This document shows, piece after piece, positions 4,594 to 63,500 of a stretch of DNA of 64,000 nt (positions are counted from its first letter, which is position 1; the number at the start of each line of letters is the position of its first letter). Below the pieces are notes generated by a model that saw only the letters and a list, made by a program, of their open reading frames with translations, had not been told where the DNA came from and did no database searches. Source of the stretch: Eledone cirrhosa (Eukaryota); contig OZ024742.1 of the NCBI GenBank assembly GCA_964016885.1, positions 330,770,001 to 330,834,000 on the forward strand, given 5' to 3'. The translations under genes were made by a program, and so were the position numbers.

Positions 4594-5476
4594 ATGCTAT
4601 CACTACAGTTTACTAGCTTCTCTGAACCAGAACTAACTTCATCGCCACCGCCTGTACTACCAATACATTTTCTAGCTACATATTACACGGCACATCACAG
4701 TCCACGCAGCACAACCAGTAACCGAGTAATCAATCCACCGCCACCATTAGCAGCACCACCACCATCAACATCAACAAGGACCCCGCCATCACGACGACCA
4801 TAACTAACACCAACATTACCAACGCCACAAATATCACACGTGCCACCAACGCGTCCACCTCTACCATACCCACTAGCAACACCACCACTTTAAATATATA
4901 TTTCAGCCCCACGTCATAACTCGCAGTTACTACACCCTCTGAACTCCAAGCAGCTATACTACCCCTCACCATTGCCACAGCAACCACTCCAAACACATAT
5001 TCCAGTATTACCAACATATCCCATACCCAGCCCTATTACTTTCTTTGATTTATACTTTTGGCGATATTTAATACGCACATATGATTTTTTGTGTCTAACT
5101 GTATATATATATATATATATATACACACACACACGAACGCACGCATACACGCTCGCGCACACACATATATATATGTATATATATATATGTATATATATAT
5201 GTATATATATGTATATATATATATGTATATATATATGTATATATATATGTATATATATATGTATATATATAGTATATATATATGTATATATATAGTATAT
5301 ATGTATATATGTATATATGTATATATATATATATATATATATATATATATATATATATATATATATATGTATATATGTATATATAAATATATATATGTAT
5401 ATATGTATATATATATATATATATAAAATATTAAACAAATAATGAACAAACAATTCCTTATATTAAACAAAAAAAG

Positions 5477-5631
5477 TTCACTATTTAACGATCGTTTCTA
5501 GGGCATATATGTGCTATAATTGGTATGCATATTTAACAGATCTATGTACAAAATTATACAAAATTATACAAATTATCAAGATTAAATATACATACCTAAC
5601 TCATATATACGCCGTCTTCAGAAATAATGAA
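5477..5631 (-). ncRNA. Type I hammerhead ribozyme (Naiad unit 1)
   Basis: Minus strand reads UUCAUUAUUU-CUGAAGA-C-GGCGUAUAU...AUAUAUGCC-CUA-GAAA-CGAUC-GUU-AAAUAGUGAA: 10-bp stem I, stem II, palindromic stem III. Confidence 0.75.
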
Positions 5632-8600
5632 GTATATTTATTGATAATAACAACAATTCAAAATATCAGTTCAAAATTGACCAATGAAAACACAAAGGGT
5701 TAAAAAGCAGTTTGGTGTGTGTATATACATGTAAAACCCTACACACATTTTACAATAATGTGTGTATAATATGTATGTGCATACTAAAAAGATGGATGCA
5801 AATAAAAAATTTCAAGGTTAATATCTCTGTAAGCTTAATGCGCTGATAAGATACGCAATGATACTTATGTAGTCAAGCATATAAATATATTTTTTTCATA
5901 CTCACACATATCAGTATAATCACACATACATGTGCGTATATATATAAATATACACATAACCACGAACACACAAACACACACACACCCCCCACTCACATTT
6001 ATATATGTGGATATAAAATCATAAGCAAATAGAAATTAAGTCACTCACATAAACACACTGGTACACACATTTCAAGATCAAGATACAGAAATTAGGTGGG
6101 AGGGGGGGGGGAGGGGTCAGTATTAGGTTGTCAGACCAGACAGCCTAATATAAATGTATCTATAAATTATGAAAAATAAAAAAATAAAAACAATAAAATA
6201 TATTACATAATATAATGTACATACGCATACAGATATACATACACATACGTACATGTACGCACACATAGAGATATCTACACATACATACATACACACATAC
6301 CTATACTGTCCTACACACACATACATTTACACGAACATACACATACACATATAAAAAGATAAAAATACGGACACACACACGCGCAACACATACACACATA
6401 CACATATATATATATATATATATATATATATATATATACATATATATACACACACACACATAGACTCATATATATATACATACACATACATATACTTATA
6501 CATAAACATATATATCCCACACTCATACCACCATGAAAACACATACAAACATCCAGATATATATATATATATATATATATATATATATATATATATATAT
6601 AAACATACACACACGTACACATATATGCATATATACGTACACATATACACACATACACATATATATATATATACACACACACATAAAATACAGACATGCA
6701 CATATATATATATATATATATATATATACATACATTTCATTACCCTTATATATACACATAGTATATATACATACACAACCTCACTTATACACATATACAC
6801 ATAAGTTATATTACAATAATAATAAAGAATAATATATATATATATATATATATATACATATATATACACACATATACACATATACATACATACACATACA
6901 TATACATACATACATACACATACATACATACACCTAAATATAAACATATATAAATACACACATACGAATAAAGACATATATTCACACATAGACACCTATA
7001 TACACATATATATATATATATATATATATATACACATATATATCTATATACACACACATACACATACATACACATATATATAAATATATACACATATATA
7101 CACACGCACACACATACAGACGCACATACACACTCACATATATATATATATATATATATATATGTGTATGTGAGTGTGCGCAAATACATACATATATATA
7201 CACACACACACATACAAACACACACAAACACATACATATGCATACATGCACACACACACACATATATCACATAGATACGAAGATAAACATATAAATAGAG
7301 AGACATACAAATATATACAGAACCCATATACACATACATGCAAACACGCATATACATATATACATATATACACACATATATATTCCCATATACAAGCATA
7401 CACATACGCACACATATATACATATACCTACACATATATATACACCACACATTCACATACACGTACATATATAATACATATATATACATACATATACATA
7501 CATATGTATGTACAATCATATATACACACTCAATCTTACATTCATATTTACATGCTCATATATGTATTTTTATATCTAGAAATAAATACCAAAAAAAAAA
7601 AAAAAAAAAAAAAAAAAAAAAAAAAAAAAAAAAAAAAACTATATAGACACCCATCTACCCATATATTCATACATATACACTTACAAAAACAGATGATAAT
7701 AGTATGGGGGAAAGGGGGGGGTTTGGAGAAGGGGATCAAAGTAAATATATGTTTCAAGAAACCTATAATATTTTCCATATCTTAATTCAATGTATGTTCT
7801 TACATATTTTCAATGCTAGGAAATACGAAATCTTTGCATCACAAAATAAAAAAGTATACCATTAATCATATGTCAACTAAACCAAAGATAGTCAACATAT
7901 TGATTTCCAAGGTGTAAATTAGTTAGGTTTATAATATTTGAAGCAGAATTATGAAGTCAAACAGTAGTAGATTATTAATTACATTATAACTAAATTAAAG
8001 TTAATAATAGGGAAAAGAAACCCAAATAAAAATAAAATAAAGTATTACATCGGTAGTAGCATATAAATTATATGTAAACTAAGTTAAAAATTATATATTT
8101 ATTTCAATAGTATATGTTAATTAGTATATGTTAATTAGGTATACAATACATAAAGCAGATATTGTATTTCATCAATAGCATAATATAAATATATGCAAAT
8201 AAAAATCAAAATTAATACGCATACACATACATATACATACACATACACATACATATACATATACATACACATATATATATATATATATACATATATATAC
8301 ACACGTACATACATATATAGTCACATAAATATACATACAGATATACATACAATACACACATATACATATACATATAGATATACATATCTTTTTCAAAAAA
8401 TTTGCACAGAATATATTAACTAGGTATATATCCAAAAACACCTCCCATTCTATGATTACATGAAATTCTGCAATTCGTCTGTACAAGGATACTAATTTTA
8501 AGCAAATTAAAATTAAAATTAAAGTTTTAGGTTGATTAAAGCTAAAACCAAATAATAAATATATTTCCAAAATATATATTAATTAGGTCAATAATACTAA

Positions 8601-60421: not shown

Positions 60422-60561
60422 TCATTATTTCTGAAGACAGCATATATATGTGTACGTATGTATACTCCCTCTGATAGTTTGTAAACATTTTACATAGATC
60501 TATAGGATATGCATACCAACACTAACATATATATATCCTAGAAACGATCGTAAAATGATGA
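60422..60561 (+). ncRNA. Type I hammerhead ribozyme in the inverted arm of the older Naiad copy
   Basis: CTGAAGA at 60431; GAAACGATCGTA at 60541; stem I TCATTATTT/AAATGATGA. Confidence 0.75.
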
Positions 60562-63500
60562 ATTATTTAATATAAGGAACTGTATCTTTGTTTATTCATT
60601 ATTTTAATAATTTATAATAATATATATATATATATATAAATTTAATTTAGAGTACGAAAACAACGTTAGCACCCTTTACGAGCTGTGAGTACACCCACAG
60701 ATATATGCCTAGCACTCGGTGTCATTTAGTTCCAACAATAATTGTTGTAATTATATGGTCAATGAAGGTGATAGGTCATGAAAGTAGTGTGGTAATGGCC
60801 GAGCATTCTATAGACGCCTCTACGCTGAACGTAGTTCAAAGCGATATTCAGCGTGGCACACGCGGTGACAAACCTGGTCATTTGAATATGATGTTTTTCA
60901 GACGAGTTTATTGGAGCAAATCGAAATAAAGTCTTGCTGAAATAACCAAATTACTGTTGGAAATCAAACTCGTAATCTTATGATATAGAAGGAACACCTT
61001 AACCCACTAGTGTAAGCGATTTTACACATTTTCCTACACATATTCAGACATACATCAATATATATTTATCGGATTATTGGGTACTCATAGATGGAAAGAA
61101 ACAGCGATGAATCTATTTCATATTTATCTTCAATATTGATACCGTTGTTTGAATGTTATGCCTCTTTGGGCTATTCTTATAACACTCCTTAGCTATCGTT
61201 TCATTTAAGCGTTTAACGAAACATGCATGAAGCGTCATGTAGTAATATATCCTCCAAATATCAATAAACACAGAAATGAGCCCAGTGAAGCAGAAAAAAG
61301 CATCTATACTACATGAAACGTCTGCTATAAAATGTAGTTATCAAAGAATATGATTTCGAGAAATAAATGGCTTCGTGGAATATATATAATACTGTTGAAT
61401 GTTTCATTGTTGGAAGATTTGATAATGAAATAAATGGACTTGAATTACACGAGATATTATTGCCATTTGAACAAATGGGTTTAGATGGGTCAGGTTGTTT
61501 CATATGTGTAGGGTTTGGAGTAGATATTATATGAATTAATAACTTGGTTAATGCGCTAGAAATTTTTTTACATACCTTGCAAAGTGTTCATTACAAAACA
61601 GAAAAATAGAAGATAATAGCTCAATATGTTATTTATATCAGTGTTACTAGTATCAAAAACGATGGAAGACATCGATAAATGATCCAGAAACTCACTGTAA
61701 TACTACCCAGGATATGAATGTTAATAACCTCACACAAGTTAAAGTCACATACTTGTGATACATTTTATAATCATAAAATTGTATTAAAATTTAATGTTAT
61801 AACATATTATGAATCAGATTAAATGAATAAAATGTTATCATGATTCCACAACATACTACAGAACTGTTGCAGTAACTCCGAGTTCTATACTAAAACAATC
61901 TTCAAATAGGTGATTGTGCGGATATGCGTACAGCCACACTAAAGCAGCGCCATTTGACCTCGTTTGGTCAGAGTCATTTCCGAATGGTAAGAAGAGCGCT
62001 CATTTTTTCCGAAATATTGAATATAAAATGATACTATCATTCTACCGAATTATCGCTTAATCTTAATTAAATCAGAATTTAACATTAATATTAATAGCTG
62101 ATAGTTTTATAATTTCAATTATGATCTCTACTGACCCGTACATTCGCTGTGCCCAAACATGTCCATGCATATGATACAATTTCACAATCCATATGGAAAT
62201 GTGTAATATAAGTAATGGCATGTATTATATTATCATATATCATAATTACACACAAGTGTGGTATTACTGTTTCTGAGCACATCATGACAAGTTTAAGCTA
62301 ATTTTCTCTTAGGACCTAACATAAACGAGCCCGTATGAAATCGGCCATGCTCAGATAATGGATAGGTGTACATTATAGTTTACGAGTTATTCATGTTTAT
62401 ATTTTGTTTTGGAAAGTTAAGATATTATGAGCGAGTATAACTGGCACGTTATTAAACACATTTGAATAAGCATGTATTAGGATCCTTTACAATTTTCAAA
62501 AGTATTTCTTACTAAATGGTCAATTAAACCTATATCCTCGTAGATGAGTTGTTTACACTATAATCCACAGGAAATGATGCCCCGTGGATCCTCTCCAGTA
62601 ATTTTTCGTTATGCAATTCAGCGAGGTCGAGCCCTAGCTACAGAGTTATATTTAACATGTTGGCTTTGATTGAGTTTCATACGAAATAATATATCTTTCT
62701 TACATTTGGAATCCGATATGTTTCGGGATTTCTTTGTCATTCAAGGATTTCTTGTTTCTGTGTAAGGATCTATCAATAATAATATAAAAATCAATAATGG
62801 TCGATTATAATTGCGTTTTAATTGGCAAAACTACCCGATGCCGAATAATCAGAAAATGGCTGATGTGGCTGATATCGATTATTTGCGGAACAATCGGTGA
62901 TAAATTACTAGCAATTTTGGGATATTGTTTAGTAAAAGGAAAACGCCAACTCGGATATTTCATCAATGTCTAGAAGAATATTTATTTTATACACTCTCTC
63001 TTTGTTCACAGTCATTTTATGAGGTATATTTTAGACAATACTTATATATATTTACCACTCGTTACTTGGAACAGAGGAGGTACCGAGATCATAGCAATTT
63101 TGTTTGGAAAGTAGATTTTATACGTTGAAAGATTATATACTAAACCCTCGTTTAACCTAATTCCATTTCTATATCAACTGAAAATAATATTTAGATGTGC
63201 TGATACTTCTGTTGCAAATATTTAATTTGTATTTTTAACATCTACAAAACAAAATGTTTTTCCTTAATGTAAGTCAAAACAGTATAATGTTAAAAGAATT
63301 AGAAATAACAACTTGCATGAATTATTTGTTTTATAGCCATATCAGCACCCAAAATGAACATCATGTGAGACCATTAGTACACTGGCCTACTTTCCCCTCC
63401 TACCATCACTATAACAGCCCACACTTCTCTATCTTTTGCTAAGTACCACCAGTGTGTTGTATTTCGAATGAATAACATCCCATCACCAATGTACACATGG

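Follow-up and report, generated by a model that had tools for sequence, protein, structure and literature searches.

How the inverted repeats and one-sided tails of Penelope-like elements (PLEs) originate is named as an open question in the portions of Craig et al. (2021; PMC8557442) and Frangieh et al. (2024; PMC11167929) that are drawn on throughout this text. For the Penelope elements of Adineta vaga, the corresponding portion of Arkhipova et al. (2013; PMC3846280) describes an optional tail at the 3' end of one inverted pseudo-long terminal repeat (pLTR), a pLTR plus tail that takes in the start of the open reading frame (ORF), target-site duplications of 8–10 bp, and palindromes at the junctions. 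The PLE scheme of Craig et al. (2021) includes an optional tail of 30–40 bp, ascribed to resolution by the endonuclease (EN), and holds that target duplications are often not discernible in microsatellites. PAc, a Poseidon element of Anolis carolinensis, has a reverse transcriptase (RT) whose two internal start positions in vitro form the boundaries of the tail; both target strands are cut and extended, and a dimer is predicted (Frangieh et al., 2024). These sources already contain the one-sided tail, the targeting of (TA)n and the pair of internal start sites (Arkhipova et al., 2013; Craig et al., 2021; Frangieh et al., 2024). Here we describe four inverted PLE insertions in a 64,000-nt stretch of the genome of Eledone cirrhosa (assembly GCA_964016885.1, contig OZ024742.1, positions 330,770,001 to 330,834,000, hereafter the window), together with their relatives elsewhere in this genome, in which one arm terminates at a short site (S) and the other runs on to a long site (L), the interval between the two being the tail.

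In twin priming of L1, reportedly described by Ostertag and Kazazian in 2001, the second end of the target is said to prime internally on the RNA, and the two complementary DNAs (cDNAs) are joined via microhomology to give an inversion. The first primer uses poly(A), no fixed position serves as the second site, and the arms barely overlap. The Eledone insertions resemble L1 in having microhomology or a short insert at the inversion junction (mostly 0–5-nt overlaps) and differ in having two internal sites, both of them fixed, and arms with extensive overlap. Like PAc, they have two sites near the start of the ORF that bound a tail, and an AT-rich target; unlike PAc, they show microhomology of 2–5 nt and tails of 44–60 and 137 nt, and they belong to different clades (Frangieh et al., 2024). 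The two sites are also paired on one insertion, whereas the portion of Frangieh et al. (2024) used here does not pair them. The scheme of Craig et al. (2021), as far as drawn on here, differs from the present case in its near-strict pairing, the 137-nt Hydra-like tail, the 6.2-kb unit, and the recoverable 12–15-nt duplication. A literature search whose coverage left out older subscription papers found no strict S/L pairing, hidden duplication length, one-RNA evidence, arm asymmetry, tail of 137 nt, or use of twin priming to explain PLEs. The result is a real refinement, quantitative and mechanistic, of a known feature.

Paired Short and Long Ends of Inverted Insertions

The young Hydra-like insertion (5423..28577, both strands) lies in (TA)n and consists of about 2.8 tandem 6.2-kb minus-strand units and one inverted, 5'-truncated unit. 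Its tandem left arm (5423..22755, minus strand) terminates at S (5423) and its 5.8-kb right arm (22754..28577, plus strand) at L (28577), and the arms share a 2-nt overlap at the inversion junction, 22754–22755. The tail is 137 nt long (28441..28577, plus strand; the S-equivalent position is 28440). Internal copies of the tail at 11497..11633 and 17708–17844 (minus strand) read through into the next unit, so that the sequence beyond S and L is visible at the internal junctions 11497 and 17708 and the true ends can be defined. The units of the array are 100% identical to each other. An older, broken Hydra-like insertion (56866..60615, both strands), ~86% identical to the young one, has its L end at 56866, its S end at 60615, and a tail of 135 nt (56866–57000); its flanks at 56846–56868 and 60613–60625 resemble a decayed 12–13-nt target duplication. 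The Neptune-like insertion (family B; 46538..51060, both strands) comprises a left arm (46538–48709, minus strand) terminating at S (46538) and a right arm (48711–51060, plus strand) terminating at a minor long site (51060), with a 44-nt tail (51017..51060, plus strand). The family B unit is 4147 nt long, and its S and L sites fall within the first ~30 codons of the ORF of the next unit. An inverted fragment at 31736..32406 (both strands) belongs to a sister family, C, with its L end at 31736 and its S end at 32406, and the ends of family C are homologous to those of family B.

All eight ends lie at the positions given in the initial annotation, with one short and one tailed end per element. 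Its proposal that the four PLE insertions obey a single rule, with inverted arms, S and L ends and (TA)n targets, holds for four independent events that represent two designs only, the Hydra-like one and that of the sister Neptune-like families B and C. For the 31.7-kb element, the S end at 32406 and the tailed left end stand, and the tail, previously put at ~57 nt, measures 60 nt (31736–31795) using a read-through copy from locus L267.

Hand tallies of inverted insertions with both termini seen extended this pairing beyond the window. S was paired with L in 42 of 43 Hydra-like insertions (p = 5e-12; L241, counted here, is a probable pair, and another pair has its S shifted to −36), in 43 of 45 insertions of family B (p = 3e-11; including five L arms of 10–21 nt and one pair shifted to −24/+25), and in all 21 of family C (p = 5e-7; taken from best-identity matches with 1.5-kb flanks), in binomial comparisons with the 50% that independent site choice would yield at most. 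The tallies exclude insertions for which the far end could not be located (e.g., L266, L281, L284, L345b, L160, L174). The short-plus-long arrangement expected of each inverted insertion was thus borne out, short/short and long/long combinations being rare. The Hydra-like exception (L261/262) is S/S, as is L139 from a separate best-hit set; both are mirror duplications that are centred within the insertion and take in the flanks and hence represent secondary events, either rearrangements or assembly artefacts. L324 (L/L') and L327 (S/S) are further exceptions.

The S/L rule is limited to inverted insertions. Solo insertions are frequent: among the sampled Hydra-like copies some 10 end at L and 8 at S, while family B has about 19 ending at S and 5 at L. 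An extremely short second arm would escape detection in TA. The stronger rule that an S end always has an L partner was rejected, since S solos exist in both families, and so was the rule that the tandem arm always ends in S, since tandem arms ending at L were found.

The positions of individual ends were examined in samples drawn from this genome of about 3.0 Gb. Anchors placed upstream of both S and L gave 7944 Hydra-like and 5106 family B matches, and the sample for each family consisted of the first 100 listed matches, all on one contig, with 101 anchors found in each. In the Hydra-like sample, 4 anchors read through, 1 was internal and 96 belonged to terminal arms, 41 of which stopped at S itself and 40 at L itself; in all, 94 of the 96 lay within 5 nt of one or the other (one subfamily-deletion copy being counted as S), a balance of 48 S to 46 L. 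Raw counts of 492 S against 3871 L had suggested L as the primary site, an interpretation rejected because the S pattern is subfamily-specific and the unbiased sample is balanced. In family B, 7 anchors were read-through or internal, and the 94 other ends comprised 49 at S, 4 at −5, 22 at +58/59, 9 at +43/45, and 10 elsewhere or mis-called. The two end peaks anticipated by the initial annotation were therefore recovered in both samples, with the qualification that the Neptune-like long site is itself two positions, a major one at +58/59 and a minor one at +43/45, the latter used by the window copy. By analogy, these peaks agree with a PAc-type start of the RT at two tail boundaries. Folding of the S–L region indicated no unusual stability (z −0.26), and no site-defining stem-loop is claimed. 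Of four DNA-type runs, two yielded contigs in which loose TA ends occur at L; these may come from the assembled sample and were not counted.

A pattern of this kind might also have formed after insertion or during assembly, through loss of one tail, gene conversion between arms, or hairpin reads. The mirror duplications at L261/262 and L139 demonstrate that secondary events of this sort exist, and the 100% identity of the units in the window array is compatible with them. Such processes predict S/S, L/L or scattered ends rather than the single-base S peaks seen in three families; moreover, the young, 100%-identical copies are already S/L, and the target duplications described below bracket the S/L pair. 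We regard this explanation as very improbable.

Target Duplications and Microhomology

Where a TA tract flanking the insertion is interrupted, duplication of the target becomes detectable. A script identified informative 12–15-nt duplications in 12 of 49 family B pairs (11 after discounting L366), compared with 3.1% of 1176 mismatched pairs; for the Hydra-like family, the corresponding figures are 4 of 57 pairs and 0.1% of 1608 mismatched ones. These script counts are too low, because the automated end-caller mis-called about 20 subfamily-variant ends. Four more duplications were recognized by eye (L236, L103, L283, L348), those of L283 and L348 in non-TA targets. The lengths are mostly 13 nt, followed by 14 and 15, with the microhomology at both ends counted in. 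Family C was left out of this analysis because its copies are too decayed. Duplications of this type would imply 3' overhangs at both sides of the break.

Target and element share microhomology of 2–5 nt at both ends of insertions. All four main sites finish in a TA-type word of 3–4 nt (chance per site 0.14 and 0.10), in keeping with the initial annotation, which had noted that each end closes in a TAT/ATA-like word merging with the target. The Hydra-like end region contains 16 TA-type words of at least 3 nt, only 2 of which are main ends; the remaining 14, some of them longer, are unused or nearly so, and pairing thus does not select the S or L site. Smaller displacements do follow the target. 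Shifted ends match it at +139 in L283, +55 in L304 and −4 in L320, as well as at +59 in L315, L325, L337 and L358, where the target reads TATG, and the match extends to non-TA letters. Microhomology thus appears to tune the register of the end though not choosing the site, a reading against which four family B ends at −5 weigh, as they show no junction match.

Arm Lengths, Junctions and Template

The 5' ends of the two arms were compared in a hand-curated table of 84 pairs. They were equal in 24 pairs, the S arm extended further 5' in 48, and the L arm did so in 12; in 17 of the 84, the L arm was confined entirely to the tail and hence had no overlap with the S arm. Ranked by length, unequal pairs had the longer arm at S in 44 cases and at L in 16 (p = 4e-4), and in family B arms shorter than 55 nt made up 11 of 42 L arms and none of 27 S arms (p = 0.005). 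In most pairs the arms overlap, over hundreds to thousands of nucleotides. The inversion junctions are direct joins, mostly with 0–5-nt overlaps or short inserts, and several are perfect, loop-less palindromes with a 2-nt centre.

These observations bear on a fold-back scheme, in which a cDNA primed at L folds or switches onto itself and the EN then resolves the intermediate by cutting the pLTR of the element itself at S. Self-priming from junction palindromes and a tail left by EN-mediated resolution are proposed in the cited portions of Arkhipova et al. (2013) and Craig et al. (2021), respectively, and equal 5' ends in 24 of 84 pairs are what a hairpin would give. Fold-back requires the S arm to lie inside the L arm, yet S reaches further 5' in 48 of the 60 unequal pairs, and the 17 L arms that share no overlap with their S arm contradict it as a general model. 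The zero-loop palindromic junctions and the common S-ended solos (about 19 in family B) do not suit it either, and PAc RT starts at both sites in vitro (Frangieh et al., 2024). The self-priming on an antisense template read from the A. vaga elements (Arkhipova et al., 2013) likewise does not generally fit the arm lengths and junctions found here. Fold-back accordingly seems improbable as the source of the pairing, if less so than an origin after insertion.

Sequence variants in the arms carry information on their template. In 25 of 27 Hydra-like pairs, the partner arm was the nearest sequence or tied for nearest, with a median difference of 0 within pairs and 7 between insertions, and no pair had subfamily-mismatched arms. 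Nine pairs share a 5' end outside the hotspot described below (e.g., −4994/−4994 and −3937/−3937), and in L356 one pre-existing inversion junction was copied into both arms. Zig-zag insertions with several inversion junctions also occur (L265, L356, L075, L072); the structure of L265 could stem from two cDNAs that used each other as template and afterwards re-annealed, and opposite-strand transcripts fit it too.

An asymmetric dimer could instead carry two RNA molecules that stem from a single source locus, or two species of RNA, one with its end at S and one with its end at L. Each protomer would serve one target end, and the asymmetry would assign one of them to S and the other to L. The extensive overlap of the arms, with no block at S, would then need no strand displacement; L327 joins arms of two families; L265 is readable as copies of both opposite strands of an earlier S/L element; and RNA sequencing read ends of PAc coincide with its start sites (Frangieh et al., 2024). 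The shared non-hotspot 5' ends of the nine pairs speak for a common template. So does the lack of subfamily mismatch among the 27 Hydra-like pairs, given the median of 7 changes that separates subfamilies. The longer arm is usually the one at S, and the sole two-family case, L327, is S/S rather than S/L. Two RNAs are thus unlikely, while being the strongest competitor of the readings considered.

A Proposed Route of Insertion

Judged from these sequence comparisons, the best reading of the data, and probably the correct one, is twin priming in which the two 3' overhangs left by a staggered cut both start on one RNA. It is supported by the 12–15-nt duplications, the S arms that could not have been copied from L arms, and the loop-less palindromic junctions. 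The EN–RT complex would cut (TA)n with a stagger of ~13–15 nt, and the two 3' overhangs would prime RT on the same RNA, one at S and the other at L, both of them fixed internal sites. The complex may be a dimer holding one RNA and setting both sites, with the last 2–5 nt of each overhang pairing with the RNA to fine-tune the register. S-primed RT would lead and L-primed RT follow; because the latter would have to displace the S-primed cDNA, the L arm would often be shorter. The two cDNA 3' ends would presumably then anneal, each completing the second strand of the other, and a solo insertion would arise when the second target end joins the first cDNA without an arm of its own. The twin-priming-like model and the use of microhomology put forward in the initial annotation are retained in this form, with microhomology used at the sites but not choosing them.

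Several points weigh against twin priming on one RNA. No duplication was found in L237, L287, L292, L294 and L311 despite an interruption near the junction. The comparison of 5' ends depends on hand curation, and the Hydra-like family, taken by itself, shows no significant asymmetry in arm length (17 vs. 7, p = 0.06). L arms have no sharp stop at S, and many extend kilobases beyond it. Arm identity is uninformative in family B, where the median difference between insertions is 0, and in general a single RNA, two RNAs from the same source locus and subsequent gene conversion cannot be told apart by it. L324 is L/L', while its near-duplicate L325 is L/S. In L327 (483–3285), a family B arm is joined head-to-head to a family C arm, both ending at S and with no TA between them; it is either a chimeric insertion from two RNAs or an insertion with target deletion into an older copy. 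Finally, the PAc start sites are described as non-homologous to the cut DNA and the same for both strands (Frangieh et al., 2024), and microhomology use may not be general.

A broader proposal has about an even chance of being right. Obligate dimer twin priming would be the normal route of EN-bearing Penelope elements, with a 13–15-nt stagger and both 3' overhangs loaded in the manner of telomerase onto one RNA, at two internal alignment sites that the protein defines. This one step would directly give rise to the tail, to the inverted pLTR and to the hairpin mini-elements, and the route would be conserved between the Hydra and Neptune clades.

5' Ends and Hammerhead-Like Motifs

Among the paired Hydra-like arms compared, 37 of 84 terminate between −196 and −210 relative to S, on the edge of stem I of a putative hammerhead, and these stops generate many hairpin mini-elements of ~550 bp. 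The hotspot itself, at −205 from S (28235), falls within the 5' strand of stem I and coincides with an initiator-like TCATT, not with the predicted cleavage site at 28376. We infer that the RNA 5' end of the Hydra-like element probably lies at this −196 to −210 hotspot. The type I hammerhead-like motif of the Hydra-like pLTR (28232..28386, plus strand) was recognized by eye and consists of a 10-bp stem I, CUGAAGA, a long stem II, GAAA, and a palindromic stem III. A minimal hammerhead-like core in family B (50763..50810, plus strand), also read by eye, has CUGACGA, a short stem II, and GAAA. Rfam scans of both pLTRs returned no hammerhead match, only microRNA matches driven by microsatellites, and the putative hammerheads are accordingly assignments made by eye.

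Coding Capacity and Clade Assignment

The young Hydra-like array contains two intact copies of an ORF of 813 amino acids (8903..11344 and 15114..17555, both minus strand), which encodes an RT (YRDD), a CxCx5C linker and, at the C terminus, a GIY-YIG EN. The initial annotation had labelled the young and old elements Naiad, a label that proved wrong, as GIY-YIG is expected N-terminal to the RT in Naiad; here YRDD is at residue 346 and VY...YIG at 693 of a single ORF, so the EN is C-terminal. Naiad elements are also characterized by the lack of a canonical hammerhead; the candidate motif at 28232–28386, recognized by eye, has no Rfam match. By the motif definition of the Hydra clade (PMC8557442, section 11, in the portion used), the protein has DKTG at residue 115, the Hydra change from DKG to DKT; RWR at 37, a conservative variant of the Hydra RWK motif; CNCRNKTNC at 673 (CxCx5C); CRLC at 771 (CxxC); and CNH at 799 (CxH). 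The CCHH motif, which Hydra lacks, was not found on inspection by eye. Insertion into (TA)n, a Hydra trait, holds for this family, and the unit of 6.2 kb exceeds the typical, not strict, Hydra size of <3 kb because of a long microsatellite-rich 3' region. Pfam and PDB sequence searches with this protein gave no match; look-alikes in an atlas stand at 0.96–0.98, with GIY-YIG in 26–50% of members in some clusters. The elements thus fit the Hydra clade, by motifs rather than by an RT tree. Of the 4 matches for Octopus in the supplement to Craig et al. (2021), at least 2 are Naiad families.

The coding frame of family B (49031..50482, plus strand), open after an in-frame stop, has an RT (YVDD), a Cx4CxxC linker and GIY-YIG at the C terminus. 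In this 483-residue frame, CTNRKCIIC at 350 matches the CX2-5CxxC linker of Neptune and Nematis, and VYSIRCTEGTC...YIG at 372 places two cysteines between GIY and YIG, as in those clades. The 46.5–51-kb element is called Neptune-like only, its motifs suiting Neptune (or Nematis), and its sister family is represented by the 31.7-kb piece. A full family B unit, L311, has a long asparagine-rich stretch in the N-terminal part of its ORF, and its two long frames overlap with a frame change; the stretch recalls inserts, likewise rich in asparagine, in the Penelope elements of Adineta (Arkhipova et al., 2013).

Other Repeats in the Window

The left arm of the Neptune-like insertion harbors a short interspersed nuclear element at 46639–46856 with a 16-nt target duplication, and related copies lie near 4420, 29700, 35860 and 56380. 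A decayed long interspersed nuclear element (38137–43369, minus strand) retains ORF1-like frames, an AP (apurinic/apyrimidinic) endonuclease (PF03372) and an RT (PF00078). The window also contains an inverted-repeat element with tandem repeats at 44383–45436, a 244-nt palindrome at 51659–51901, and a small dispersed repeat family at 37320–37492 and 53382–53552.

Implications for Penelope-Like Elements

Through these counts, the descriptive statement that a tail is often found at one end becomes a near-strict rule. For annotation, boundaries are fixed for two large families, with 7944 and 5106 anchored arms, and the Naiad label is replaced by Hydra-like. The numbers are testable in the existing in vitro system, namely the 13–15-nt stagger, the assignment of strand to site, one versus two RNAs, and the 2–5-nt pairing. 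The RTs of PLEs are the sister group of telomerase, and if the proposed route is true, the two would have in common that a DNA 3' end is placed on an internal RNA site through a short alignment.

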